Below, in pieces: positions 488 through 48,934 of a stretch of DNA of 64,000 bases (position 1 is the stretch's first letter; each line of letters begins with the position of its first letter). Under the pieces are notes generated by a model. The model worked only from the letters and a program-made list of their open reading frames with translations, was not told where the DNA came from and did not search any database. The translations under genes and the position numbers were made by a program. The DNA is from Planctomycetota bacterium (GTDB lineage: Bacteria > Planctomycetota > UBA8108 > UBA1146): positions 6,739 to 70,738 of the forward strand of contig DUAN01000157.1 of the NCBI GenBank assembly GCA_012960845.1. The letters run 5' to 3'.

Positions 488-1344
488 CTGGATCGAGATC
501 TGATCCTGGCGAGAGGAACATTTCCGTGAACCCGAAAGTACTCGGCATCTTGAATGTCACTCCGGATTCCTTCAGTGATGGAGGCCAGTTCACGGGTGTC
601 GATGCTGCCAGGAGCAGGGCTCTCGAGATGGTTCAGCAGGGCGCCGATGCCCTCGATGTCGGAGGTGAATCAACGCGTCCTGGAGCCCTCGCCATCTCGG
701 TCGAGGAGGAACTTCAGAGGGTTCTCCCCCTTCTCGAAGCGGTTCAGGGCGAGGTCGATGTCCCCATCAGCATCGACACCCGTCGAGCCGAGGTGGTTCG
801 AGAGGCGATGGTTCGGGGAGTTCGAATCGTCAATGACACCTCAGCCCTGCAGGACGACTCCGCGCTCTCATCGGTGATTGCAGAGCACCAGTTGACGGTG
901 ATTTTGATGCACCGAAATGGAGTTCCTGAAACGATGCAGCGGGATCCTCGATATGTAGATGTGCTGGAGCAGATCCGGACATTTCTCAAGGAACGGATCG
1001 AGTTCGCCGTTGCAGCGGGGATTCCTCGCGAGCAGATCGTGATCGATCCTGGACTTGGTTTTGGCAAGAGCATCGCCGACAACTACCAGATCACCGGAAA
1101 CCTCGATTACTTTCGATCGCTGGGAGTCCCTCTGTTGCTGGGCGCATCGAGGAAGTCCTTCACCGGCATCTTTGATGGATCTGCTCCGGAAGATAGGCTT
1201 CCGGCTTCCTTGGCGTTCGTCGCACGAGCGCAGAGGTCTGCGGTGGAATGGGTCAGGGTCCACGATGTCGAGGAAACGGTGACCTTCCTCAAAGCGCTGG
1301 CAGCCTTCGAGGAGCCACAACTCATCGAGGAGGGAATCAGTTGA
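466..1344 (+). CDS. folP: dihydropteroate synthase
   Basis: It carries the GILNVTPDSFSDGG motif, ...LDVGGESTRPGA and a pterin-binding fold, and is about 290 aa. The stop TGA is at 1342-1344. The exact start is uncertain. Confidence 0.85.
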   Translation: MVRAEPLTGSRSDPGERNISVNPKVLGILNVTPDSFSDGGQFTGVDAARSRALEMVQQGADALDVGGESTRPGALAISVEEELQRVLPLLEAVQGEVDVPISIDTRRAEVVREAMVRGVRIVNDTSALQDDSALSSVIAEHQLTVILMHRNGVPETMQRDPRYVDVLEQIRTFLKERIEFAVAAGIPREQIVIDPGLGFGKSIADNYQITGNLDYFRSLGVPLLLGASRKSFTGIFDGSAPEDRLPASLAFVARAQRSAVEWVRVHDVEETVTFLKALAAFEEPQLIEEGIS

Positions 1345-2186
1345 ACGAGTTCGAGACGATCTGGACCGCCATCGAGGCGATCGGTCCGCTGCGAGTACTG
1401 ATCGAGGTGAGTGTCATCTACCTGCTGATCTATGGATTCATCGTCTTCTGTGAGGGGACTCGAGGAGCAGGGGTCCTGAAGGGGTTGGCGATGACGGTGA
1501 TCATCACCGTCGCGGCCACTCGGCTGGCGGTCGGAGTCCTCGATCTGGAGCGGATCGGATTCCTGCTGGCGGTGGTGACTCCTGCAGCATTCACTGCCAT
1601 CATCGTGATCTTGCAGCCGGAGCTTCGGCGAGGGCTGGTCAGGCTCAGCCAGGCACCCATCTTTGGCGAGCTGATCCGAGACGAACAGGAACTGGTCGTG
1701 GTGGTCGTTCGCGCTTGCGTTACGTTGTCGAAGACTCGCGTCGGTGCCCTCTTTGCCATCGAGAGGGACCAGTCACTGAATCCCTGGGTGGACCGAGGCA
1801 CCAGACTGGATGCGGAGGTCTCGTCGGAGATCCTCACCACCATCTTTTATCCAGGTACTGCCCTCCACGATGGCGCAGTGGTGATCCAGAGTGGGCGGAT
1901 TGCCGCGGCAGGTTGTTTGCTGCCGCTCTCAGAAAATGAGCAACTGGGCTCCTGGGCGGGAACCAGGCATAGAGCGGCTGTTGGCCTGACCGAGGAGTCC
2001 GATGCGGTGACCGTGGTCGTCAGTGAGGAGACGGGAATGATCTCCCTGTGCGTGAAGGGCGAGGTTTTTCGAGATCTCGATCGTGATGAACTGGCTCATA
2101 AATTACGCAGTTACTACACCAAGACCGATGCTGCTACAGAGGCCACCCAGGTCGAGAAGACTGCTCCAGGTGGGGGGGTAGCATGA
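1341..2186 (+). CDS. cdaA: diadenylate cyclase (c-di-AMP synthase), membrane-anchored CdaA type
   Basis: A TTG at 1341 is in frame and overlaps the folP stop (TTGA). Three N-terminal TM helices precede a DAC domain with DGA and GTRHRAA motifs. Confidence 0.85.
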   Translation: MNEFETIWTAIEAIGPLRVLIEVSVIYLLIYGFIVFCEGTRGAGVLKGLAMTVIITVAATRLAVGVLDLERIGFLLAVVTPAAFTAIIVILQPELRRGLVRLSQAPIFGELIRDEQELVVVVVRACVTLSKTRVGALFAIERDQSLNPWVDRGTRLDAEVSSEILTTIFYPGTALHDGAVVIQSGRIAAAGCLLPLSENEQLGSWAGTRHRAAVGLTEESDAVTVVVSEETGMISLCVKGEVFRDLDRDELAHKLRSYYTKTDAATEATQVEKTAPGGGVA

Positions 2187-3244
2187 AGGGATCATGGAGG
2201 GTCCGGGTCGTCGAGTTCCTGGTCGGAAACAAGCGCAACAAGTTAACCAGTCTGCTGCTGGCGGTGGTGGTGTGGGCATACGCCTTCGGAAATACCGGTC
2301 ATGAGGAGAGTATCGATGCTTTCCTGATCGTAGAACCGGCAGCCAAGGATCAGGTGGTGATCTCCAAGACCATTTCCCAGGCGAAGATTGGACAAAAGGG
2401 CGATCTCTTCGTCGGGCGCTGCAAGATCACTCTTTCGGGGCCTCGAAATGTAGTGGCTCGATATGTCGAGTCGGAGCTCTCGCCGCAGGGGATTCTGAAG
2501 GTGGATCGATCTGGCCGGATCGATCTGCGAAGCGCAGATCTATTCCAGCTGCCTCAAGGCCTCTCGGTAAAGGGCATCGATCCGACCTTTCTGGAAGTGG
2601 TCCTCGACAAGGTGGTGAGGGTCGAGAAGGAGGTCCGAGCATCGGTCCGTGGAACTCCAGGTCCAGGATTTGTGCGGTTTCCCGGAGGGATCTCCACCGA
2701 TCCGGAAAAGGTCACCCTGGAGGGTCCAAGTCAGTTGCTCGAGCAAGACGTGGTGGCAGTTCTGACCCAGCAGATCGATATCGATGGAGTGGTCGTTCCT
2801 CTCGTCGAAGCCATCGTTCCACTGGTGATCACTGGCGATGACAGCAAGTTGATCCAGATCGCAGAAGGGTTCCCGAGGGAAGCGACGGTGAAGATCCACC
2901 TGCAGGAAAATTTGACCCGGGAACAGGCTCTGGTTTCGGTCCGTTACATCGTCGACGAAGATGTGGATCTTGAAATTCGCGGAGACCAAAGCATCAAGGT
3001 GACCGTCACCGGAGTGGAGGAGGCGGTGAGAGAGTGGAAGAAGAGAGTCGACGAAGGCCGCTTCTATCTGCTGGTGAGGGTTACCGATACCGCAGGAGAA
3101 GGTCGCAATGTTCCAAGAGAAGAAGTGCGATGGATCGATGGTAGTCTGCCGACTGGAATTTCAGATGAGCAGGTGAAACTGGAGCGGATCATCCTCTACA
3201 GCGCCAAGCCATTCGAAGTACCTGGAGAGGATCCGCAGAAGTGA
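2183..3244 (+). CDS. cdaR: CdaA regulatory protein, YbbR-like domain protein
   Basis: It has an N-terminal TM segment and then repetitive beta-rich YbbR-like sequence. It overlaps the cdaA stop (ATGA) and sits between cdaA and glmM, as in the canonical cdaA-cdaR-glmM operon. Confidence 0.7.
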   Translation: MKGSWRVRVVEFLVGNKRNKLTSLLLAVVVWAYAFGNTGHEESIDAFLIVEPAAKDQVVISKTISQAKIGQKGDLFVGRCKITLSGPRNVVARYVESELSPQGILKVDRSGRIDLRSADLFQLPQGLSVKGIDPTFLEVVLDKVVRVEKEVRASVRGTPGPGFVRFPGGISTDPEKVTLEGPSQLLEQDVVAVLTQQIDIDGVVVPLVEAIVPLVITGDDSKLIQIAEGFPREATVKIHLQENLTREQALVSVRYIVDEDVDLEIRGDQSIKVTVTGVEEAVREWKKRVDEGRFYLLVRVTDTAGEGRNVPREEVRWIDGSLPTGISDEQVKLERIILYSAKPFEVPGEDPQK

Positions 3245-4596
3245 TCTTCGGAACCGATGGTGTTCGAGACATCGGCGGTGAGGGTCTACTCTCCCCCGAT
3301 TCCGTCGACAGACTGGGCCAGGCGATCGCCGGCCACATGAGTCGCAATGGAAGCGCCGGTGGGCGAGTTCTGATCGCGCGAGATACCCGTACTTCGGGGC
3401 CAGGGATCGAGCTAATACTCACGAATGCCCTGCGACGGGAAGGTTGCAGCACCATCCACGCCGGGGTGCTTCCGACTCCTGCAGTCTCGCTCCTGGTCCC
3501 GGATGGAGTGGCAGATCTGGGGCTGGTCATCTCGGCTTCTCACAACCCACCTGAGTTCAACGGGATCAAGATCCTCGACGGGGCCGGTTCCAAGCTCGAT
3601 TCCTCACAAGAGGAGGCGATCTCCGAGGACCATGGAAGGCATGCGGGCCAACCGAACGCCTCCCTCGAGATCGAGGTGGAGGAGGGTCTGGGCGATCGAT
3701 ACCTCGAGAAGTTGATGGGCTCCTTTCCTGCGGGAGAGTTTCTTCAAGGCTTGTCGGTGGTGCTCGACTGTGCCCGCGGGGCTGCCTGCCACTGGGGCCC
3801 GGAAGCGTTTCAGCGTGCCGGTGCAGAGGTGACCGTGATTCATGGTGAGCCGGATGGGGAACGGATCAATGTCGGTTGTGGTTCACTCCATCCCGAGGTG
3901 CTGAGTGAGGAAGTGAAACGGATCGGTGCTGCGGTGGGAATCGCATTGGATGGAGATGCGGATCGCGCACTCTTCTGTGACGAATCGGGCACTCATGTCG
4001 ACGGCGATGACGTGATCGTGATCTGGGCGAGGGCGATGCTCGAGGAGGGATTACTCGATCCACCCATCGTGGCCTTGACCGTGATGTCGAATGCCGGAGT
4101 AGAGGAATATCTGAATCGCCATGGAGTGTCGGTGGTGCGAACGGCGGTGGGCGACCGAGCGGTCGCGGCAGCGCTAAAAGAGAGTGGCGGAATGCTGGGC
4201 GGAGAGCCTTCAGGGCATATCATCTGCCCCGGGGAAGCGGCCACCGGAGACGGCATCCGTACGGCGCTAGCGGTGGCTCGCCGGGTGGTCCAGTCGGGTC
4301 GACCTCTTTCGAACTTGTATTCCGGAATCGAGCGTTTCCCTCAGGAACAGAAAACCTTGAAGATCCAGCAGAGGCCACCACTGGAGCAGTTGTCACTCCT
4401 CTCGGTGACGATGGAGCAAGCCCAACAGGCGCTCGGCAGTGAAGGACGGATCCTGGTGCGCTATTCCGGAACCGAACCGCTGCTGAGGATTCTCGTGGAA
4501 GCCCGCAGTCAGTCCGATGCGGAACTCTGGATCGAACGCCTCGAGAGATCCGCCCAGGCGGAAGAAGTACTGGGAGTCATTCCTGCCAGCACTTGA
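3241..4596 (+). CDS. glmM: phosphoglucosamine mutase
   Basis: The GTG start overlaps the cdaR stop. It has an FGTDGVRD N-terminus, the SASHNPPEFNGIKI phosphoserine loop and the GEPSGH motif. Confidence 0.9.
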   Translation: MIFGTDGVRDIGGEGLLSPDSVDRLGQAIAGHMSRNGSAGGRVLIARDTRTSGPGIELILTNALRREGCSTIHAGVLPTPAVSLLVPDGVADLGLVISASHNPPEFNGIKILDGAGSKLDSSQEEAISEDHGRHAGQPNASLEIEVEEGLGDRYLEKLMGSFPAGEFLQGLSVVLDCARGAACHWGPEAFQRAGAEVTVIHGEPDGERINVGCGSLHPEVLSEEVKRIGAAVGIALDGDADRALFCDESGTHVDGDDVIVIWARAMLEEGLLDPPIVALTVMSNAGVEEYLNRHGVSVVRTAVGDRAVAAALKESGGMLGGEPSGHIICPGEAATGDGIRTALAVARRVVQSGRPLSNLYSGIERFPQEQKTLKIQQRPPLEQLSLLSVTMEQAQQALGSEGRILVRYSGTEPLLRILVEARSQSDAELWIERLERSAQAEEVLGVIPAST

Positions 4597-11178: not shown

Positions 11179-11655
11179 CTACAACTTGTTGAGGATCTTC
11201 TTGAACAGTTTCTTCTCGTCGCCATCGTGCTGCTCGAGTTGATCCGATCGCCCCAGGGCATAGAGAGCCAATCGAACCTCCCGGGTGGTTGCGGACAAGG
11301 TGGCTTCGAGGAGTTGTTGCTCTACATCGGAGAGTGACCGTAACGCTTCGATCAGGCGTTTCTCTCTCGAACTGACCTTGACTGATCGGCTCCGGGTCTC
11401 TTGCCTGTTCGAGGACCGGATGTTCTCCAGCAAGGCGATCCGGGGCGGTGGATAGGGTGCATCATTATCGAGAATGTAGTCGGCGGTGACTCCCAGTTCT
11501 CGGGCGATTCGCAGAGCTACGGCACCTCTGGGCTGATGAATCCCCGCCTCAATTCGAGACAGAGCACTGGGCGTCACCGAGGTCATGGATGCGAGAGAGC
11601 TCTGGGCGACCCCTCGATCCTTGCGTAGATTCATGATCTTACGTCCGGTTTCCAA
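11179..11655 (-). CDS. XRE-family helix-turn-helix transcriptional regulator
   Basis: The N-terminal HTH_XRE reads LRKDRGVAQSSLASMTSVTPSALSRIEAG. The start may instead be the internal MNLRK at 11634. Confidence 0.6.
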   Translation of the reverse strand: METGRKIMNLRKDRGVAQSSLASMTSVTPSALSRIEAGIHQPRGAVALRIARELGVTADYILDNDAPYPPPRIALLENIRSSNRQETRSRSVKVSSREKRLIEALRSLSDVEQQLLEATLSATTREVRLALYALGRSDQLEQHDGDEKKLFKKILNKL

Positions 11656-11674
11656 GGGGCATCCTCCTGATTTT

Positions 11675-11744
11675 CAAGCGTCTGTGGTTCTCATGCGGCT
11701 ATGGTTCTCAAGCGCCTGTGGTTCTTGGGCGTCTGTGGTTTGAT
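11675..11744. repeat. four degenerate ~17-bp direct repeats (GCGYCTGTGGTTCT core), candidate operator array
   Basis: Read directly: caagcgtctgtggttctc / atgcggctatggttctc / aagcgcctgtggttctt / gggcgtctgtggtttga. The array is flanked by tttcaag. It lies between the divergent XRE regulator and the DHH phosphoesterase gene. Confidence 0.6.
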
Positions 11745-13037: not shown

Positions 13038-14285
13038 ATGAAAGTCGATCTCGGCGATCGTTCGAAGATCCTGATCCTGATGCTGCTGGTCGGCACCGCC
13101 GGGATCGCTGTTCCTGGTTGCGGTGATCCCGTGGCGCCGGTGGAGGTCGAGCCCACCACTCCGCGCAAAACTGCCGAGGAACTCGCCCAGGAGCAGGAGC
13201 AGCGCGACAAGGAGAGACTGGAAACACGCTACAAGGGTCTTTCCAAGGCGGTGAAGACCGATCCTGAACGCTTCGATGACTGGATCTCTCATCTGGAAGA
13301 TTTGATCTATGCCTCCGAGGGAACCTCGATCCAGATCAAGGCCAAGAAACTGCTCGAAGCACAGTTCCAGTTCCGCGAGGACGAGGGGCAAAAGAGTCTC
13401 GATCAGATGACCAAACGGGTCGAGGCGTTGGTCGAGGAGGGAGACCCCCTCGCCGCAGAGAACATTCTTGAAGGGTTTGATCCCGATGGACTGTTCGAGA
13501 AAACCGCTGCTTTCAAGGGCTGGCAAGCGCTGAAGAAAAAGGTCGCGATGCGTCAGGCGGCAGAGGTCGATTTCGACCGGATCACCCGACGAGCGCGGGC
13601 CTATCGCCGCCAGGAGGAGTTGGCCCAGGCCATCGGCTTGCTCGAGTCCTTTTCGGACGAATACAAGGGGACCCAGGAGTATGCAGAAGTGGTGGAAACG
13701 ATCCAGGAGTACCTCGCAGAGTACGTGGTCGCTCGTGCGGCGATCGCCGAGCAGTTAGCCATCGAGTGGATCGATCTCGAAGTGGATCAGTACCTCTCTT
13801 CCTTCCGTGCATCTGCAGCCGATTCCGATGCGACCGTCTGGACTGCTGAGGGTGGAGAGGTGGTGGGAAACAACGAGACATCCGGTCTTGCACAGCTGGA
13901 GATCGGCGATGATCTGTGGGAAGAATACTCGGTCGAGATGGAGATTCAGCTGGTTTCAGGAGATCAGATCAATCTGGGAATCACCGCCGGGATGCGTCCT
14001 GGAGCGGGGATCAAGAATTACGATGTCCACGGCTTCGAGTCGGAGGAGGAGGAGTGGCTGAGGATCCGGATCGAACTGAAGGAAGGGCTGATCCGGTTGA
14101 CTGACCTCGACAGCCTCGAGCGTCTGGATGATGACATGCGTCCATATTTTGCCGCGGGAGGGATCGCAGTGCTGCTCAGGCCTGATGAGTCGGTCCGTCT
14201 ACGCAACGTCCGTTACAAGGTCTTTCGACCCGTTCCCGGAGAAGAACCGGATCCGGACGGAGCGGAAGAAGAATCGGAAGGGTAG
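13038..14285 (+). CDS. hypothetical lipoprotein, charged/coiled-coil rich
   Basis: A signal peptide with a lipobox-like AVPGC is followed by long Glu/Lys/Arg-rich helical sequence. It is immediately upstream of the HK-NtrC pair. Confidence 0.5.
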   Translation: MKVDLGDRSKILILMLLVGTAGIAVPGCGDPVAPVEVEPTTPRKTAEELAQEQEQRDKERLETRYKGLSKAVKTDPERFDDWISHLEDLIYASEGTSIQIKAKKLLEAQFQFREDEGQKSLDQMTKRVEALVEEGDPLAAENILEGFDPDGLFEKTAAFKGWQALKKKVAMRQAAEVDFDRITRRARAYRRQEELAQAIGLLESFSDEYKGTQEYAEVVETIQEYLAEYVVARAAIAEQLAIEWIDLEVDQYLSSFRASAADSDATVWTAEGGEVVGNNETSGLAQLEIGDDLWEEYSVEMEIQLVSGDQINLGITAGMRPGAGIKNYDVHGFESEEEEWLRIRIELKEGLIRLTDLDSLERLDDDMRPYFAAGGIAVLLRPDESVRLRNVRYKVFRPVPGEEPDPDGAEEESEG

Positions 14286-26864: not shown

Positions 26865-27332
26865 TCAGGTCGATTTTCTTCTCACTGACCAGCCGAGAAT
26901 CGCCACTGCAATGAGCGAAAGCCAGCCGTGTCCCTCGATCCATACCATCGAGTTCTGCGATGAGGTCCAGCCGAGCATGGGGATCAGTACCAGTCCCATG
27001 GCGATCGCCATCAGCCACCAGGAAAGCTGCCCGAGAATCGTCGTATCGACGGCTGGCCACCAGCATCGAATCACCAGCAGTGCAGCCAGCGGGCTCGCGA
27101 CCAGTAGATGCAACTGGAGCCAGTACCCTCTTAACTCATCCCCGACCGGCACGCCGGCAATCGAGGAGATGGTGCAGAGAAATGCCAGGAGCACCGTCCA
27201 GCGGGAGAGTCTCTGGATCACCGGGATTCCTCCTGAATCAACTTCCACAGCCCGAGCAATCCGCCGGAGATCGCCAGCAAGGTACAGATACTGAAGTAGA
27301 TCTTCCCCGCTTCCCTTCCGAGGAAGAGCCAT
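26865..27332 (-). CDS. hypothetical small membrane protein (weakly supported)
   Basis: A Trp-rich hydrophobic ORF sits directly downstream of the cytochrome gene on the same strand. It overlaps the cytochrome 3' end in another frame, so it could be spurious or start internally. Confidence 0.3.
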   Translation of the reverse strand: MALPRKGSGEDLLQYLYLAGDLRRIARAVEVDSGGIPVIQRLSRWTVLLAFLCTISSIAGVPVGDELRGYWLQLHLLVASPLAALLVIRCWWPAVDTTILGQLSWWLMAIAMGLVLIPMLGWTSSQNSMVWIEGHGWLSLIAVAILGWSVRRKST

Positions 27333-28918
27333 GACCAGATCTTCCAGCGACTGGAATCGATGATTCCACTCTCCATCGGAGAGGAGGTGGCTTCGATTTC
27401 GCCAGGGCCAGGCAGGGGAAGAAACGACGATGGACCGATCCTATCCTGCAACCAGCTGCTGGTGGAGGAGTGGCAATCGTTACAGCCACCGGCTCCCAGT
27501 GCGGCTCGTGCAGGTCGCACCGGATGGGAGAGGGCCCAGGACACTGCTTCAGCAGCGGGGGAAGCCGCTGCTTGCAGTTCATCTGCGTCAGTGACCTTCC
27601 ACAGACGGCCGCCGGTGATGAGGATCGCCTCCCTGCCATCTTCCAGCGGTTCCTGTAACTTCTTCAAGGCCTTTACCAGGACCGACGAGGCATTGCTTCC
27701 CTCTATTTGGTCGGACAGTTCCTCGACCAGGTCCGATCGTACCCTCAGAGCACGGCGCAGAAGCGGTCGAAGTTGTGCCGGGGTCAGTGGTGTGATGGTG
27801 CCGTTGGCCTCCAGAACTCCCCAGCCGTCGGGCCAGGTGAGACGGACCGGACTGATCCTCTGCTGGTCATCTCGCTGCAGGAATCCGCCGATGATGCGAG
27901 GTGGGATTCCGCCCAGACGCTCCTGACTCGCTTCTCCGAGTCGGTGGGCACGGGAGGTCCACTGGGCGACAGGGGAGCGCCCCGGACCTGGCCCTGCGTG
28001 ACAGGCGGTACAACTGATTTCTTCGAGGTGGAAGGGGGGGAGTCCCCGGTGTTCCGCCAGCGGCGCGCCGAACAAACCCCCATCCTCGTCGAGGTGGCAA
28101 CCTCGACAGCTGAGGGTGGTCACATCGGTCCCCGAGGGATGAACTTCACCCTCGTAGCCCCGGACCATGTGGTGATCGATTCCCGATCGGTGGCAATCGA
28201 CACAAGAGAGTCCGGCGGCGAGGTGGACATCATCCTGGTGATGCCATCGACGATCGTTCTGTTCATCCAGATCTCGAACCGTGTGGCAGCGAAGGCACGC
28301 CTGACTGCCCGCATCCCCGAGTAAGTTCAATTCCACCTGAGCAGTGGAATCGAAGCGACGGGGATCGAGTTGACCGGAAGTGTCGACCAGCCCGGCAGCG
28401 ACAAAGGGTGCCAGAGATGTATTCCCCGAGTCGATCTGCTCGATGCGTTTGGCGAAGTCGTAGCCACTGGCCAGGTGACAGACAAGGCAATCGGAGTCGT
28501 CGCCGGCTCCAGTATCATGGCGACCAAACTCCTGACTCCACTCTTGCTGGTCGAGGTCCATCGATGGGGGAGAGAGTAATCCAGGCCACTTCCTTCGGTG
28601 AAGTGGCATGCGAGTGGCACTGCGAGGATCGACCAGTATCCATGGCTCGCCGGCACGACCATCGGGTCCTTGTCCAGCATGAAGCCCACCGCTGGCCGCT
28701 TCGACATCATGACAGGGGGCACAACTCTTGCCGAGATGAGGAAGACTATCACTGTTGGAACCGGGATCGATGACCTCACCGCGGGAGTCTCTCAAGGGGA
28801 TCCGGTGCAGGTAAGGATCATCGGAGTCGGTGCGCTTCCAGACCGAGTCCTGTGCGGTGCCGATCGATCCGATCAGCACGGTGGTCATCAGGAATAGAAT
28901 CGCTGGAAGATTATTCAT
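27218..28918 (-). CDS. multiheme c-type cytochrome (7 CxxCH), signal peptide + C-terminal TM anchor
   Basis: The heme motifs are CAPCH, CLVCH, CLRCH, CVDCH, CRGCH, CTACH and CNDCH. It has an N-terminal signal peptide and a C-terminal hydrophobic helix. Confidence 0.8.
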   Translation of the reverse strand: MNNLPAILFLMTTVLIGSIGTAQDSVWKRTDSDDPYLHRIPLRDSRGEVIDPGSNSDSLPHLGKSCAPCHDVEAASGGLHAGQGPDGRAGEPWILVDPRSATRMPLHRRKWPGLLSPPSMDLDQQEWSQEFGRHDTGAGDDSDCLVCHLASGYDFAKRIEQIDSGNTSLAPFVAAGLVDTSGQLDPRRFDSTAQVELNLLGDAGSQACLRCHTVRDLDEQNDRRWHHQDDVHLAAGLSCVDCHRSGIDHHMVRGYEGEVHPSGTDVTTLSCRGCHLDEDGGLFGAPLAEHRGLPPFHLEEISCTACHAGPGPGRSPVAQWTSRAHRLGEASQERLGGIPPRIIGGFLQRDDQQRISPVRLTWPDGWGVLEANGTITPLTPAQLRPLLRRALRVRSDLVEELSDQIEGSNASSVLVKALKKLQEPLEDGREAILITGGRLWKVTDADELQAAASPAAEAVSWALSHPVRPARAALGAGGCNDCHSSTSSWLQDRIGPSSFLPLPGPGEIEATSSPMESGIIDSSRWKIWSWLFLGREAGKIYFSICTLLAISGGLLGLWKLIQEESR

Positions 28919-30098
28919 CGGTGTCGGATGTGGCTTTCACGACCGGGGTTCTCAACTCCTTGTAACCCTGTTGGATCTGCCGCTGGATCGACTCCACCTG
29001 CGAATCCCACCATCGATCCCACTGCTCGGGAGGGGGCGGGTTTGTCGGGCGAACCAACCGAAAACCGACATGGAACGCATCGGTGCACCACCAGATGCTC
29101 TTCGGTAACTGGGGGTCTCGTTTTTGCCACTTGCGGGTCGAGGGATAGCGAGCAGCGGAACGACAGCGCTCCGGATCATCCTGCCAGGAGCCTCCTCGAA
29201 CCACGGCTGGCCAGATCTTTTCGGGCCAGCGCACCGCAGCGGTAGCGGAGACCACCTTGTCGCCGTGGGCTGCATAGCCTTCGGCGAGGTAGCCATCGAG
29301 GGTCCACTCGGCGACATTTCCGTAGAGATCGTGCACTCCCCAGCGATTCGCCTTCAGGGTTCCCACCTTGCGATAGCCAGAGCCGAGGCCTGGGTATCCC
29401 GAATCGGGATCGTCATATTCGCTGTTGTCGAAGAACCAGGCATATTCCGCCAGTCGGGTCGCATCTTCACCGAAAGAAAATGCCGTTTGTTGGCCGCATC
29501 GAGCGGCGTATTCCCATTCCGCTTCGGTGGGCAGACGCAGAAACTGGCCCGTCTTCTTCGACAGCCACTTGGAGAATTGCATCGCTGCGAACTGGGTCAC
29601 ATCGGCGACCGGATAGCCCCCAGCAGTTCCCAGTCCTTCGAGGATGGGTCGGGAATCCTGTTCCCACAGAGGAGTGGGAATACTCACCGCATCGGCCCAC
29701 TCCGGTTGATCCGCCTGGTCACCCGAAATCCTCGTGTCCTGAAGGATGCCGTACTCCTGGCGGAACAGATCGTAGACATCCCAGGTCAACTCGTGCTTCA
29801 TGATGGAGAAGGGACTCACCTTGACGGTCCAGGTCGGCCCTTCGTCGGCAGACCTGCCCTTCTCGGTGGCGGGTGAACCGATGGTGATGGTCTCCGGGTA
29901 GCCATCACTGCCGACCGGTATCGAGACCCAGTGAATTCGCTGCTTCGATCCCGGAATCTGCTGGCTCTGGATCTCCGGTTCATCCGCGTTCGCAGTCATT
30001 CCGGTGAACAGGAGGATGACACCGAGCCAGATGGACGTCGGTGGTCTTTGCGTCAGAGTTCTCAGCGTCAGAGTTCTCAGCGTCAGAGTTCTCTTCAA
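28911..30098 (-). CDS. FGE/SUMF1-domain protein (formylglycine-generating-enzyme-like fold), secreted
   Basis: It has LPTEAEWEYAARCG, HDLYGNVAEWTLDGY and VRGGSWQDD, all hallmark FGE-sulfatase-domain motifs. The canonical C-terminal Cys pair of true FGE is absent (single Cys in PERCRSAARYP). Its stop overlaps the cytochrome start by 8 nt. Confidence 0.8.
   Translation of the reverse strand: MKRTLTLRTLTLRTLTQRPPTSIWLGVILLFTGMTANADEPEIQSQQIPGSKQRIHWVSIPVGSDGYPETITIGSPATEKGRSADEGPTWTVKVSPFSIMKHELTWDVYDLFRQEYGILQDTRISGDQADQPEWADAVSIPTPLWEQDSRPILEGLGTAGGYPVADVTQFAAMQFSKWLSKKTGQFLRLPTEAEWEYAARCGQQTAFSFGEDATRLAEYAWFFDNSEYDDPDSGYPGLGSGYRKVGTLKANRWGVHDLYGNVAEWTLDGYLAEGYAAHGDKVVSATAAVRWPEKIWPAVVRGGSWQDDPERCRSAARYPSTRKWQKRDPQLPKSIWWCTDAFHVGFRLVRPTNPPPPEQWDRWWDSQVESIQRQIQQGYKELRTPVVKATSDTDE
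30051..30093. repeat. 2.9 copies of a 15-bp tandem repeat (cgtcagagttctcag) inside the 5' end of the FGE-like CDS
   Basis: Read directly. On the coding (minus) strand it encodes (LRTLT)x3 between the Met-Lys-Arg start and the signal-peptide h-region. Confidence 0.9.
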
Positions 30099-30187
30099 GG
30101 GTGTCCTTCCAGGCTCTGCCTCGCTGGGTCCCAGCAGTTTTCGGCAGGGTGGTGCCCCCGGTAGCCGCGGGCGGGTACAAGGCAGAC

Positions 30188-31369
30188 ATGATGTCGTACT
30201 TCCTCCCTCCAGTCCAGATGTCCCCTATCGCTCCTCAGGGCATCTCGGCTCCTCAGGCCATCTCGGTGGATACTCCGAGGAATCGGGTTCGGTCGGCCCC
30301 GTTGCTGCTGTCGGCATTTCTCCTGCTGATGTGTGGCTGTCAATCGCCCCTTCACAGGGTTCACCTCGATCATCCCTCGATGGGAACTCGGTTTCAGATC
30401 ACCGTGTTCCACTCCGATCGAGATCATGCCCAGGCGTGGGTCCGTACCGCGTGGAACCGAGTCGATCAGATCGATCAGGCCTGTTCTGACTGGAAGGAAT
30501 CGAGCGAGTTGCGTCAACTGTGTCGCTCGGCGCCACATCTGAAACCCGTGGTGGTGAGTACGGACCTCCTTCAGGTGATGAAAAAAGCACTGGAAATCGC
30601 GCGGGCCAGCGAGGGTGCGTTTGATCCGACAGTCGGTGGATTGGTACGGTTGTGGCGACGATGTCATCGTGCCGGTCGATTGCCTCGAGATCATGAGGTG
30701 GAAAAAGCTCGCAAGGGAATGGGAATCGATGGAATCATCATCGATGAGGCCGCCAGTACCATCCAGCTCCTGCGAGAAGGTGTCGCCATCGACCTGGGTG
30801 GGATTGCCAAGGGGCACGCTGTGCAGGAAGTTTTTCAATTACTGGAGCAGCAGGGGATCCGCCATCTGATCATCGATGGAGGGGGCGACCTGGTGCTGGG
30901 GGATCCTCCTCCAGGACGTCGAGGATGGCGCATAGCCATCGGGACATCGAATCCGCAGGCCCCGTCAAACGGCACCCCCTTGAAACTGCTGATCCCCGGG
31001 CGGGCAGCGGTGGCGACCAGCGGAGATGCCTCTCGGTTCACCGAGATCGAAGGGCGCAGATACAGTCATATTGTCGATCCGAGCAGCGGGTTGGGAATCG
31101 AAGGACCCCATCAGGTCACCGTCATCTCGACCGACGGTGCCATCGCAGACGCCCTCGCCACCGCAATCTCGGTACTGGAGCCGCAGGCTGCGTCCGATCT
31201 TCTACAACGATTTCCCGGAAGTGCTGCACTGCTGGTCGATCCCCGCGATGGATCTCATCAGGTGCTCGGGGAGATGCCTCTGGCACCGAACAGTGATGGA
31301 TCGGTTGTGGAGAAGGGCGCTTCTGCTCTGTATTATGAGAAGTGTCCGCCGGGCTCGGTCGGCCAATGA
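30188..31369 (+). CDS. apbE: FAD:protein FMN transferase (ApbE family) lipoprotein
   Basis: It has a lipobox LLLMCGC and the motifs MGTRFQITV, FDPTVGGL, AIDLGGIAKGHAV and ATSGD. It is divergent from the FGE-cytochrome operon. Confidence 0.8.
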   Translation: MMSYFLPPVQMSPIAPQGISAPQAISVDTPRNRVRSAPLLLSAFLLLMCGCQSPLHRVHLDHPSMGTRFQITVFHSDRDHAQAWVRTAWNRVDQIDQACSDWKESSELRQLCRSAPHLKPVVVSTDLLQVMKKALEIARASEGAFDPTVGGLVRLWRRCHRAGRLPRDHEVEKARKGMGIDGIIIDEAASTIQLLREGVAIDLGGIAKGHAVQEVFQLLEQQGIRHLIIDGGGDLVLGDPPPGRRGWRIAIGTSNPQAPSNGTPLKLLIPGRAAVATSGDASRFTEIEGRRYSHIVDPSSGLGIEGPHQVTVISTDGAIADALATAISVLEPQAASDLLQRFPGSAALLVDPRDGSHQVLGEMPLAPNSDGSVVEKGASALYYEKCPPGSVGQ

Positions 31370-31387
31370 AGATGAAATGAGGGTTCG

Positions 31388-32779
31388 ATGGATCAGCACG
31401 ATGTAGATCAACTCGATGTAGATCAGCACGATGTAGATCAGCACGATGTAGATCAGCACGATGAAGATCAGCAGCATGAAGTTCAAACCAACTCAACATC
31501 CAGCGGAATCGATCGTCGTGTCTTTCTCAGCGCATCTGGCGGAGCACTGGCGGCTGCGGCACTGAGTTCGACCGCTCTCCAGGGGTTGCCCTCGATGATT
31601 CACAACTCAGTCGATGAGACGATTCGTGTCGGACTGGTCGGTTGTGGGGGACGCGGTACCGGAGCGGTGATCAATGCGCTCAACGTGGAACCGAGGGCGA
31701 AACTGGTTGCGATGGGAGACATCTTCAAGGATCGCCTCGATAGTTCACTGAAGAATTTGCTCGACGAGGAGCACGCCGATCGAATCGATGTTTCGGAAGA
31801 GATGCAATTCTCTGGTTGGGACAGTTTCGAGAAGGTGATCGATAACTGTGATCTGGTCATCCTGGCGACCACTCCGCACTTCCGACCGGAGCAGATCGAG
31901 AAGGCAGTGGCTGCAGGGAAGCACATCTTTGCCGAAAAACCGGTGGCCACCGATGCTCCGGGAGTGGCGAGGGTCAGGGCAGCGGCACGGATCGCCGACC
32001 AGAAGGGACTCACCCTGGTCAGTGGCCTCTGCTATCGCTACCAGGATGCGAAGCAACAGACCATCGATCGGGTCCACGACGGATCGATCGGAGACATCAT
32101 CACCCTTCAATGTACCTACAACACTGGAGGTCTATGGCACAGGGGTCGCAAGGATGAGTGGAGCGAAATGGAGTACCAGGTGCGAAACTGGTACTACTTC
32201 AACTGGCTCAGCGGCGATCACATCACCGAGCAAAGTATCCATAGCATCGACAAGATGATGTGGGCGATGAAGGATGCTCCGCCGGCCAAGTGTAGCGCCA
32301 GTGGAGGCCGAACGTGCCGGACCGAAGAGAAGTGGGGAGACATCTACGACCACTTCAATTGCGTGTTCGAATGGGAGAATGGCACCAAGTTGTTCCACTC
32401 CTGCCGCCAGTGGAGTGGCGCAGATGGTGACGTGAGTGATTATGTTCATGGAACCCGAGGAACCGCCGCAATCCAGCGTCATCGCATCGATGGAGAGGTC
32501 AACTGGAAATTCTCCGGTTCCCCCAACGACATGTACGACGCCGAATGGGTCGAGTTGTTTCGATCAGTCAAGGGTGAACGCGACCGCATCAACAATGGCG
32601 AGTACATGTGCAACAGTACACTGGCGTCGATCCTCGGAAGGACTGCAGCCTATACCGGGAAGACCATCACCTGGGATGAGATGACCAGCAGTGAACTGGA
32701 TCTGAGCCCGGTGGCCTATGAATTTGGTCCAGCTCCGGCGGTTGAAATCGCCAGGCCTGGAACCACCAAGTTCAGTTAA
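31388..32779 (+). CDS. Tat-exported Gfo/Idh/MocA-family NAD-binding oxidoreductase
   Basis: A twin-arginine motif DRRVFLSASGGALAAAAL is followed by a Rossmann fold IRVGLVGCGGRG and a Gfo/Idh/MocA C-terminal domain. It lies 18 nt downstream of apbE. Confidence 0.8.
   Translation: MDQHDVDQLDVDQHDVDQHDVDQHDEDQQHEVQTNSTSSGIDRRVFLSASGGALAAAALSSTALQGLPSMIHNSVDETIRVGLVGCGGRGTGAVINALNVEPRAKLVAMGDIFKDRLDSSLKNLLDEEHADRIDVSEEMQFSGWDSFEKVIDNCDLVILATTPHFRPEQIEKAVAAGKHIFAEKPVATDAPGVARVRAAARIADQKGLTLVSGLCYRYQDAKQQTIDRVHDGSIGDIITLQCTYNTGGLWHRGRKDEWSEMEYQVRNWYYFNWLSGDHITEQSIHSIDKMMWAMKDAPPAKCSASGGRTCRTEEKWGDIYDHFNCVFEWENGTKLFHSCRQWSGADGDVSDYVHGTRGTAAIQRHRIDGEVNWKFSGSPNDMYDAEWVELFRSVKGERDRINNGEYMCNSTLASILGRTAAYTGKTITWDEMTSSELDLSPVAYEFGPAPAVEIARPGTTKFS
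31391..31480. repeat. six 15-bp tandem repeats (gatcagcacgatgta-like) at the 5' end of the Gfo/Idh/MocA CDS
   Basis: Read directly. It encodes an acidic DQHDV pentapeptide repeat preceding the Tat motif. The reverse strand gives an artefactual ORF (ADLHR repeats). Confidence 0.9.
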
Positions 32780-32827: not shown

Positions 32828-32866
32828 TAGCCCTCGTGACCTTGGTTGCGAGGGCTATTTTCATCC
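32828..32866 (+). terminator. rho-independent terminator after the oxidoreductase gene
   Basis: A 9-bp perfect stem tagccctcg / cgagggcta with a 12-nt loop is followed by ttttcatcc. Confidence 0.65.
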
Positions 32867-36228: not shown

Positions 36229-36756
36229 TGTTTCCTCCTCGGTTCTGGCACTGTTTTACAGCACATCTAGCCGAACCGGATTTTTTTTCAAAAACAGTGG
36301 TCCGACTTTCCATCCGTTCCGGATCTATGGGGAAGTGAACGCTTGGTTGCCGTCTGGAACCCGTGTCCAGATGGGGCGTTCTGTTGCTCTTGAGGGATGG
36401 GATGGCAGGATCACGGATCCGGTCCGTATTCTGCGAATTGGTCATGAGGATACGATCTATCACCAATGAGGCCTTGTGCTGGAACCCTGTTCCGCATTGG
36501 ATCGGGCAGATGACATCTGGCTCGACACCGCCTCTTTCTCCACGGACTCCTCGTTCACTTCCACTGCTCATCCCACTGGTCATCCCACTGGGTCGCCGCT
36601 CCAGCGTGAGCGGGTGCAATATCCCCGAGCCAGAAGTTTCTCGCCAGCCAGCCACAAATTATAAAAATCTCGTACCCGATAGGTTTGGGTACTTTGCCAC
36701 TTCCCGTTGGATCAGAAATAAGTCTGGTCGTCTCGGGAAATCAGAAAGGGGACACC

Positions 36757-47646: not shown

Positions 47647-47938
47647 CTCCCACGTCAGCGTATCTGGCGGAGGGGCATCCGGCTGTGGAGTATCGGGAGT
47701 CGATGCCTCGGGAGGTGGAGTTTCGGATCCTTCAATCTCGTCCAATTTGCACCTCCCGGGAGCGCGCCACCGGGTGCACCGCCGATCGGTACAATTCTCT
47801 GGTTGGGAACTCCTGGCTGCGAGGGTACCATCGTTTAAGCCCATCGTTGAGGGGATCGGTAGCAGGACCAATGCAAGTTTCTGAATGCACGTTTATGTAA
47901 GCAGGCTGCGTATGCGGGCCGTGGAGAGGAACATCATC

Positions 47939-48934
47939 ATGAACGATTCCCCAGCCGAGATCTCTGGCAGCGGATTTCCCCTCACGGCCCCCAGTTCTTC
48001 CCAGTTGCAACAACTGGTCGAAAAACTGACCCCAGAACAACACCATGTCACGCAGAAGTCGGGTACGGAGGCGCCCTTTTGTGGTGGCCATCTGACGGAG
48101 AAGAGTGCCGGAGTCTATGGCTGTGTGGTGTGTCGATTGCCGTTGTTTCGATCGAGCGACAAGTTCGACTCTGGCAGCGGTTGGCCCTCCTTCTGCGATA
48201 CCTATGATGCCCAGCATGTGACCAGAAAAAGCGATGCAAGCGGCGGCATGGTTCGCACCGAGATCACCTGTCGACGATGTGATGCCCACCTCGGTCATGA
48301 ATTTCCCGACGGCCCGCCTCCCACCGGGATCCGCCACTGCCTCAATTCTCTCGCTCTCCACTTCTGGGCCGAAGGGGAGGCGATTCCACGAGAGATTCCA
48401 CGAGAGATTTCACGAGCGATTTCCGATGCGACCGATGCGCCGGCTACCCCCGATGCCGATCTGGCCATCGCATGGTTTGGCGGCGGCTGATTCTGGGGGA
48501 TGGAGGACCGCTTTGCGGCTCTCGATGGCGTCGTCGATGTCATCACCGGATACATGGGAGGGCATCTGGATCACCCCTCCTACGAGCAGGTTTGCAGTGG
48601 CCAGACCGATCATGCCGAGACGGTGGAGATCCACTATCACCCGCAGCAGGTGACCTACACTGATCTGGTGAAACTGTTCTTCGAACTACACGATCCCACC
48701 ACCCAGGATCGGCAAGGCCCCAATGTCGGGAGTCAGTATCGTTCGGTGGCCTTTTGCAACGATCCGGATGAACAGCAACAGGTGCAGCAACAGATCGAAC
48801 GACGGGTAGCAGAAGGTGTGTGGCGCGGTCGAAGCTGCTGCACTCAGGTCATCTTCCCGGCGCCAACCTTCTGGCGAGCGGAGGAGCATCACCAGGACTA
48901 CTACAAGAAGCATCGAGGCTTCTGCTCCCACTGA
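47939..48934 (+). CDS. msrBA: fused peptide-methionine sulfoxide reductase MsrB-MsrA with in-frame TGA (candidate selenocysteine) at the MsrA catalytic position
   Basis: The MsrB half has GSGWPSF, two CxxC zinc-binding pairs (CVVCRLP, CRRCDAH), LGHEF and RHCLNS. The TGA at 48488-48490 is in the same frame, giving ...LAIAWFGGG[TGA]FWGMEDRF..GYMGG..PSYEQVCSG.TDHAETVEIHYHP, which is the MsrA active site GCFWG with Cys replaced by TGA. Both halves are in one frame. Confidence 0.6.
48383..48424. repeat. 3.5 copies of a 12-bp tandem repeat (attccacgagag) in the MsrB-MsrA linker
   Basis: Read directly. It encodes IPRE-IPRE-ISRA-IS. Confidence 0.85.

Follow-up and report, generated by a model that had tools for sequence, protein, structure and literature searches.

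Coding tandem repeats of variable copy number are known from Neisseria and from the staphylococcal spa and clf/sdr regions. In eukaryotes, signal peptides show codon-repeat length polymorphisms, for example in leucine repeats, with at most a quantitative effect on secretion. The glucose-fructose oxidoreductase of Zymomonas mobilis, a founding member of the Gfo/Idh/MocA family, has an unusually long twin-arginine translocation (Tat) leader with a long polar stretch before the twin arginines (RR); we know of no tandem repeat or copy-number polymorphism in this leader. Variable coding repeats in bacteria have been reviewed, and the opa (P.II) genes of Neisseria carry CTCTT repeats in the leader-coding region (PMC3899988). 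Sec n-regions have no specific sequence constraints apart from positive charge, and the Tat consensus is S/T-R-R-x-F-L-K followed by a moderately hydrophobic h-region (PMC7317946). In the literature searched for in-frame variable-number tandem repeats (VNTRs) in bacterial signal-peptide n-regions and for repeats in planctomycete signal peptides, none were described. Here we analysed a 64,000-nt stretch of DNA (the window) from an uncultured marine Planctomycetota, in which three consecutive genes for exported proteins, encoding an FGE-like protein, an ApbE-family protein, and a Gfo/Idh/MocA-family oxidoreductase, each carry their own 5′ in-frame tandem array within a span of 1.4 kb. The arrays lie in frame behind conserved start codons and are polymorphic in copy number among close relatives.

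In-frame arrays in the leaders of three consecutive genes

Tandem repeats in the window were called with Tandem Repeats Finder (TRF), domains were assigned from Pfam, and the codon register was taken from the translations of open reading frames (ORFs). Positions are those of the window; related loci are labelled L001 onward and database proteins P0001 onward. To set the chance level, 40 dinucleotide-preserving shuffles of the window were searched for arrays with a TRF score of at least 66. The shuffled windows gave a mean of 0.05 such arrays and none reaching 88 (n = 40), and the real window gave six TRF rows at or above 66, corresponding to five distinct arrays. Head-to-tail arrays far exceed chance. 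The features of the three genes are as follows.

28911..30098, minus strand: FGE-sulfatase-domain (SUMF1/EgtB/PvdO-like) gene, 395 aa, TTG start (Pfam PF03781, E=5.8e-33)
30096..30098, minus strand: TTG start codon of the FGE-like gene, with GGAAGGACACCC upstream (Shine-Dalgarno-like AAGGA)
30050..30093, minus strand: 15-bp in-frame VNTR of the FGE-like gene, 2.9 copies, 100% match, TRF score 88; gene-sense unit AGAACTCTGACGCTG, peptide R-T/P-L-T-x
29985..30049, minus strand: remainder of the FGE signal peptide, with h-region IWLGVILLFTG and c-region MTANA (read from the translation, conserved in relatives)
30099..30187: divergent FGE/ApbE intergenic region, 89 bp, almost invariant in the alignment among lineages that are ~93% identical overall
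30188..31369, plus strand: ApbE-family (FAD:protein FMN transferase) probable lipoprotein gene, ATGATG start (Pfam PF02424, E=1.9e-70)
30230..30266, plus strand: 18-bp in-frame VNTR of the ApbE gene, 2.1 copies, TRF score 67; unit GCTCCTCAGGSCATCTCG, peptide APQxIS
31388..32779, plus strand: Gfo/Idh/MocA-family oxidoreductase gene, 463 aa (Pfam PF01408 and PF22725), product identical to HIG05815.1
31391..31480, plus strand: 15-bp in-frame VNTR of the Gfo gene (TRF 31391-31473: 5.5 copies, 92% match, score 145); unit GATCAGCACGATGTA
31514..31519, plus strand: twin-arginine codons CGT CGT of the Gfo gene, in the Tat motif G-I-D-R-R-V-F-L
~32830-32865, plus strand: terminator-like hairpin 3′ of the Gfo gene, with a predicted stem at 32840-32853 and a fuller form TAGCCCTCG...CGAGGGCTA followed by TTTT, read from the alignment

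A sequence-only reading of this DNA had placed two independent 15-bp arrays, one in the FGE-like gene and one in the Gfo gene, between the start codon and the Sec or Tat signal core. Both arrays exist at these places (TRF scores 88 and 145), the starts in front of them are conserved in relatives, and neither gene has a canonical in-frame ATG, GTG, or TTG between repeat and signal core, as had been stated. The 18-bp array of the ApbE gene is an additional one that had not been noted. When the FGE, ApbE, and Gfo units were compared, their sequences were mutually unrelated, which bears out the proposed independence of the arrays. The unit lengths of 15, 18, and 15 bp, as well as the 12 bp of a further array in an MsrB-MsrA linker, are all multiples of 3.

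The 5′ codons of the FGE-like gene are TTG AAG (AGA ACT CTG ACG CTG)x2 AGA ACT CTG ACG CAA. For this N-terminus, the repeat itself was correctly recognized in the sequence-only reading, which had assumed ATG where the gene has TTG and the register LRTLT where the unit is RTLTL, the latter a trivial difference. The leader peptide reads M-K-RTLTL-RTLTL-RTLTQ-RPPTS and continues with IWLGVILLFTGMTANA|DEPE; when the degenerate RPPTS is counted, the array of the window has four units, which sit in the Sec n-region. By reading of the translation, the leader has the features of a Sec-type signal peptide (MK(RTLTL)n..RPPTS / IWLGVILLFTG / MTANA|DEPE) and is probably cleaved before DEPE. TTG is the sole canonical start upstream of the hydrophobic core. 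All lineages retain this codon together with the sequence in front of it, even distant lineages that have no array, and in FGE homologues the corresponding codon is ATG (e.g., MNPLILALWL). Identical copies of the protein are found in two metagenome-assembled genomes (MAGs) and as HIG05812.1. The stop codon of the gene overlaps the start of a multihaem NapC/NirT-type cytochrome gene (27218-28918).

Many pipelines annotate the FGE-like gene as 362 aa from an internal ATG (MTANADEPE), as in P0362 (37 contigs), P0369, P0370, and P0372-P0376. This call drops the TTG, the array, and the whole signal peptide, so that the protein would be wrongly assigned to the cytoplasm. The conserved in-frame hydrophobic core upstream and the orthologues with ATG at the TTG position argue that the 362-aa annotation is wrong.

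The N-terminus of the ApbE protein reads MMSYFLPPVQMSPI-APQGIS-APQAIS-VDTPRNRVRSAPLLLSAFLLLMCGC, with two units in a long n-region. Of the further in-frame starts downstream of ATG 30188, ATG 30218 precedes the array and GTG 30266 follows it. An AAGG motif lies 6 nt upstream of ATG 30188, and the motif MMSxxxxPVQxS is conserved as protein in L018 and L019, whose Gfo proteins are 83-84% identical to that of the window; these two observations favour ATG 30188 as the true start. In LLLSAFLLLMCGCQ, M-C-G-C is an approximate but atypical lipobox compared with the [LVI][ASTVI][GAS]C expected at the end of an h-region. M-C-G-C is conserved in close lineages, and distant lineages have IWGC or AIGC. 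At the other end of the gene, a base pair at 31283 that all other lineages possess is missing from the window and L001, and a second 1-bp indel lies nearby (31337-31339). The deletion at 31283 shifts the ApbE frame and thereby produces a lineage-specific C-terminal extension of ~25 aa. The ApbE stop is 18 bp before the Gfo ATG in the window; this distance is ~90 bp without the 1-bp deletion.

The Gfo gene has GAGG 6 nt upstream of its ATG and an in-frame TGA five codons upstream, and no canonical start precedes the RR motif. Thus, this ATG is the only possible start. The 5′ codons are ATG (GAT CAG CAC GAT GTA)n, which encode an acidic n-region. Once the degenerate DQHDE and DQQHE (to 31480) are counted, the array consists of six pentapeptide units: M-DQHDV-DQLDV-DQHDV-DQHDV-DQHDE-DQQHE, continuing with VQTNSTSSGIDRRVFL through the twin-arginine leader VQTNSTSSGIDRRVFLSASGGALAAAAL. 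In total, 42 residues precede the RR pair. By motif reading, G-I-D-R-R-V-F-L-S-A-S-G-G-A-L-A-A-A-A-L has the features of a Tat signal, and RRxF[LI] is conserved across the 120 Gfo homologues listed. Pfam TAT_signal did not reach E<=0.01 on the Gfo protein. A scan for sigma-70-type promoters gave two matches against 1.1 expected, which is not significant; one of them (31308-31336), 52 bp upstream of the Gfo ATG, is compatible with transcription of the array.

The FGE, ApbE, and Gfo arrays appear to be translated, since they are downstream of conserved starts (TTG, ATG, and ATG) and upstream of Sec, lipoprotein-like, and Tat cores, respectively. The starts and their upstream motifs are conserved in every lineage (TTG/AAGGA for FGE, ATGATG/AAGG for ApbE, and ATG/GAGG for Gfo). 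Distant orthologues free of the arrays start at the same positions, with M/L-NPLILALWL in FGE, MMSH..PVQIS in ApbE, and 17-23 polar residues before RR in Gfo. No Rfam family reached its gathering threshold anywhere in the window; thus, no known RNA element accounts for the arrays. CRISPR-like or iteron arrays were ruled out, as the arrays have no spacers and lie inside ORFs.

Copy number among related loci

We compared 15 loci covering the region. Two are same-species MAG contigs 99.8-99.9% identical to the window, and the others come from Logan and ENA assemblies, GTDB species representatives, and JGI/ENA marine metagenome contigs. The loci form five lineages with a mutual identity of 91.5-98% over 6.4 kb. 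The window matches the database contig carrying HIG05812.1, HIG05815.1, and HIG05828.1. The alleles, in repeat units, are as follows.

FGE array: 2 in L007; 3 in L003; 4 in the window, L001, and L002; 4 in L008, L011, L012, and L013; 5 in L004, L005, L006, and L016; 6 in L009; 7 in L015; 10 in L014
ApbE array: 2 in the window, L001, and the L004 group; 3 in L003, L007, L008, L012, and L013; 4 in L011
Gfo array: 1 in the L008 group; 3 in L007 and L014; 4 in L003 and the L004 group; 6 in the window

The sequence-only reading had proposed comparing copy number across relatives and had expected that its change would alter leader length and charge without frameshifting. Copy number is not identical in all relatives: it ranges from 2 to 10 (FGE), from 2 to 4 (ApbE), and from 1 to 6 (Gfo) among close relatives. 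Every length difference between alleles consists of whole units, multiples of 15 or 18 bp, and all ORFs stay open, so leader length and charge do change within an intact frame. The four-unit FGE allele of L008, L011, L012, and L013 has diverged (RPLTH-RSLTH-KPLTQ-RPPTA). A further Gfo allele was found in P0391 (DQHDV-GQHDV-GQHDV-DQPHE), and the three-unit Gfo allele also occurs on a second contig (P0386). Across lineages, the copy numbers of the three arrays show no co-variation.

Differences in copy number were found between loci that are otherwise identical. L015 and L016 have no single-nucleotide polymorphism (SNP) in 6305 columns and carry seven and five FGE units, respectively. L014 differs from both by 0 SNPs in 4471 columns and carries 10 FGE units, and three rather than four Gfo units. 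L008 and L011, with 0 SNPs in 6305 columns, have three and four ApbE units. Within the two near-clonal groups, ~5 length changes in the three arrays stand against ~4-5 SNPs in ~6 kb. From this we infer that a length change in one array is roughly as frequent as one substitution in several kb of sequence, which exceeds the per-site rate by ~3 orders of magnitude. An indel census over 17.2 kb in nine sequences of the five lineages found 13 indel blocks, among which only the three arrays were multi-allelic.

The unit variants are lineage-specific and homogenized within an array. In the FGE array, all units of the window have ACT and all units elsewhere have CCT; in the Gfo array, DQHDV, DQPHE, or DPQHE dominates, depending on the lineage. 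Such homogenized unit variants are a signature of rapid array turnover, as read from the aligned units.

Tandem duplications were also found outside the signal peptides.

48382..48421, plus strand: 12-bp in-frame VNTR in the MsrB-MsrA linker, 3.3 copies, TRF score 66; peptide I-P/S-R-E/A
27978: 12-bp duplication GCCCCTCACCTG x2, in the cytochrome gene of L007
30942: 15-bp duplication RGCATCGAACCAGCA x2, in the mature part of ApbE, in one lineage (L004, L005, L009, L014, L015, and L016)
36561-36591: 12-bp x 2.6 intergenic array, between a divergent ABC-transporter operon and a large secreted-protein gene

The linker repeat, which the sequence-only reading had mentioned as a third array, was recovered by TRF. 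It encodes IPRE-IPRE-ISRA-ISDA in a cytoplasmic protein and has 2-5 units in close relatives, a range that covers the one additional unit of the same-species MAG protein HIK82159.1. Other in-frame coding indels in the 17-kb comparison were only two, those at 27978 and 30942, both tandem duplications. At the 36561-36591 array, L005 is 12 bp shorter in a poorly aligned segment. Array behaviour is therefore not specific to signal peptides. The linker array and the other tandem duplications indicate that this lineage makes 12-18-bp duplications generally; within coding DNA, those that persist are in frame and lie in segments that tolerate insertion. A peptide tandem-repeat scan of 360 homologues gave 2-3.6 times more matches in the first 45 residues than elsewhere, an excess that is confounded by hydrophobic-core low complexity and gives weak support; clear two-copy duplications were few (P0001, P0095, P0143, P0147, and P0153).

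The gene with the linker array, an MsrB-MsrA fusion (47885-48934, plus strand), has an in-frame TGA (48488-48490) exactly at the catalytic Cys of MsrA (AWFGGG-TGA-FWGMEDRF). The PMSR domain runs on in frame past the TGA (Pfam), and the TGA is conserved in L020, L022, and L024, whose MsrB proteins are 60-72% identical to that of the window. In an entire clade, the 'MsrB' ORFs stop at FGGG, and fused homologues at a greater distance read GGCFWG. A hairpin 13 nt downstream of the TGA is conserved, with one compensatory pair. With the TGA conserved at the catalytic Cys, the continuing domain, the conserved hairpin, and GGCFWG in distant homologues, the gene probably encodes an MsrA that contains selenocysteine and that gene callers divide into two ORFs.

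Three further repeats in the window are recorded here. At 11674-11740, a 17-bp x 3.9 array (or 34 bp x 2; scores 78 and 92) is intergenic, and its period is not divisible by 3, in line with a non-coding location. It lies upstream of a small minus-strand ORF (11179-11655) whose N-terminus resembles a helix-turn-helix regulator, and it may be an operator or iteron. The hydrophobic core of a lipoprotein signal peptide (MKVDLGDRSKILILMLLVGTAGIAVPGC) contains ILIL, which is encoded by GATCCT x 3.2 at 13067-13085 (plus strand), a small in-frame leader repeat. A weak 21-bp x 1.9 repeat (1351-1389) is near the 5′ end of the first gene in 1248-4596 (plus strand), which looks like a cdaA-cdaR(ybbR)-glmM operon from N-terminal sequences.

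Origin of the arrays and alternative explanations

FGE leaders of close outgroups are ordinary, namely MKKPRTRIQPWSIWLG (P0368) and M/L-NPLILALWL (L018 and P0128). Outgroup Gfo leaders have 17-23 polar or acidic residues before RR (P0002 and P0003), and the outgroup ApbE of L019 has MMSHEHAPVQIS followed by a non-repetitive spacer. These ordinary leaders suggest that the arrays grew from pre-existing n-region codons. The arrays seem to have kept the n-region composition, which is basic in FGE and acidic and His-rich in Gfo. At the Gfo site, a separate duplication, SSTQPH-SSTQPP, is present in P0001 (Gfo protein 87% identical).

Taken together, the arrays are probably slippage-driven, translated, in-frame coding minisatellites (VNTRs) located in cleaved or linker segments under weak constraint; slippage we infer from the whole-unit steps and the spreading of unit variants, and the arrays are presumably near-neutral. 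In each leader, a few n-region codons would have been tandemly duplicated to form a founding array. Once at least two copies were present, replication slippage or unequal exchange would gain and lose whole units faster than point mutation acts, and unit variants would spread along the array by concerted evolution. Arrays would be kept at sites that pass two filters, a unit length that is a multiple of 3, which preserves the frame, and a spacer removed by signal peptidase, which leaves the mature enzyme unchanged. The outcome would be a leader of variable length and charge, with a quantitative and probably small effect on export or expression.

Each unit adds a charge of +1 in FGE, -2 in Gfo, and 0 in ApbE; summed over the n-region up to the core, the alleles span net charges of +3 to +11 (FGE) and -4 to -14 (Gfo). 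The evidence leans toward a minisatellite over a dedicated export-tuning device because the linker array behaves alike, the nearby in-frame indels are also duplications, and the directions of charge differ.

Several points weigh against this interpretation. Three consecutive genes with arrays at their 5′ ends, all within 1.4 kb, amount to more clustering than a model of random tolerated sites predicts, although this was noticed post hoc. Other exported proteins encoded in the same window, namely the cytochrome (27218-28918), a GDSL lipase, a lipoprotein (13038), and a large protein (~36757), lack arrays. A charge of -14 before the Tat motif, or the 52-residue Sec n-region of L014, could plausibly affect targeting, and neutrality is presumed. 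Moreover, the alleles are short-read assembly calls, several assemblies break or have gaps near the arrays, and the 10-unit allele is the least secure.

The main rival, an adaptive explanation that we consider unlikely, is that the arrays are rheostats or contingency-like loci: selection would keep hypermutable leader arrays in a co-located periplasmic redox module (the FGE-like enzyme with the multihaem cytochrome, the ApbE flavin transferase, and the Tat-exported oxidoreductase), and the variants would differ in export kinetics or expression. The restriction of the arrays to three consecutive, functionally related genes, when other exported-protein genes of the window have none, fits this explanation, as does a turnover that is very high relative to SNPs. 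The arrays also persist, with unit variants turning over, in lineages down to ~92% nucleotide identity; the Gfo site acquired the separate SSTQPH/SSTQPP duplication; and n-region charge differs by up to 8-10 units between alleles. However, charge changes per unit in no common physico-chemical direction, the copy numbers of the three genes do not co-vary, and a like-behaving array occurs in the cytoplasmic MsrB-MsrA linker. In alleles of at least two units, the ~30 nt that follow the start codon are identical at any copy number, which makes tuning of translation initiation unlikely, and the literature searched offered no precedent. A related proposal, to which we give a rather low probability, is selected quantitative phase variation, in which leader slippage, unlike frameshift switches, would supply standing variation in the export rate or stoichiometry of the redox module.

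An ON/OFF contingency switch was ruled out because all alleles are in frame. Compared with contingency loci, the arrays show neither frame nor promoter-spacing switching, and their units are of 15-18 nt, mostly in 2-7 copies, rather than of 1-7 nt. A structural RNA switch is unsupported by 5′ folding: the 5′ mRNA folds of the three genes are unremarkable (z = -0.55 to +0.72), and only the isolated Gfo array is somewhat self-complementary (z = -2.9 against mononucleotide shuffles).

It is very unlikely that the copy differences are artefacts of short-read assembly, with repeats collapsed or over-expanded around a number that is truly fixed in each lineage. All alleles do derive from metagenome or MAG short-read assemblies. 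The end of L001, at window position 31433, cuts the Gfo array, and its partner contig likewise begins within that array (P0381); a scaffold gap in L004 is bordered on either side by array sequence; the L002 and L006 contigs end 70-90 bp from the FGE array; and the 10-unit FGE allele, at 150 bp, has the length of a typical read. Nevertheless, breaks at the arrays are equally expected from real heterogeneity within a sample, and most arrays are 45-90 bp long with internal variant units, well under read and k-mer length. The deeper lineages differ by unit variants (ACT and CCT; DQHDV, DQPHE, and DPQHE), beyond what assembly error creates. Independent assemblies from different samples recovered the same copy number, as with the five FGE units of L004, L005, L006, and L016 and the four units both of the window, L001, and L002 and of L008, L011, L012, and L013.

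We give hardly any credence to the idea that translation starts downstream of the arrays (for example, at the internal ATG of the 362-aa FGE call or at GTG 30266 of ApbE) and that the repeats are 5′ untranslated region or promoter elements, possibly iterated binding sites in the divergent FGE/ApbE control region: database entries often make the 362-aa call (P0362 on 37 contigs, P0369, and P0370), one pipeline calls ApbE from a downstream TTG, a GTG directly follows the ApbE array, and the region between the FGE and ApbE starts is unusually conserved, but the 362-aa call removes a conserved in-frame hydrophobic core and AxA site, FGE orthologues retain the signal peptide from the TTG-equivalent position (often ATG), Gfo has a single possible start, MMSxxxxPVQxS of ApbE is conserved as protein, and all three unit lengths are multiples of 3 (probability ~1/27 if non-coding), whereas the intergenic 11674 array of the window has a period of 17 bp.

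Comparison with known systems

If the arrays are the coding minisatellites that we favour, such elements occur and turn over fast in uncultured free-living marine Planctomycetota, beyond pathogens. Cleaved n-regions would absorb large changes, with lengths of 12-52 residues and net charges of +3 to +11 or -4 to -14. In practice, the arrays break or gap short-read assemblies, and they could act as very fine strain markers where populations are otherwise identical over kilobases. If copy number does affect export, the alleles form a natural allelic series for n-region function.

The closest class is that of bacterial coding VNTRs. The arrays share its traits: tandem copies beyond chance, a unit that is a multiple of 3 within an ORF, and polymorphism among close relatives. 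As in those VNTRs, the units are head-to-tail, the frame is kept, and the mechanism is presumably slipped-strand mispairing. Known coding VNTRs are in the mature, usually surface-exposed part of the protein, whereas here the arrays are in the cleaved n-region and the mature protein is unchanged. What is unusual is where the arrays sit, in Sec, lipoprotein-like, and Tat n-regions, and that three neighbouring genes of one free-living marine bacterium have them.

The opa genes resemble this locus in having a slippage-prone repeat in the leader-coding 5′ end of an exported-protein gene. However, the 5-nt opa unit shifts the frame and turns the gene ON or OFF, whereas the units here are of 15 or 18 nt and every allele is in frame, so that opa-type switching is impossible. 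The polymorphic signal peptides of eukaryotes share in-frame repeat-number variation confined to the signal peptide; there, trinucleotide repeats lie in the hydrophobic core of an endoplasmic reticulum (ER) signal peptide, in contrast to the units of 5-6 codons in bacterial n-regions described here. The Zymomonas enzyme, like the Gfo protein of the window, is an NAD(P)-dependent oxidoreductase of this family that is exported by Tat, and the resemblance shows only that long polar n-regions are tolerated in the family.

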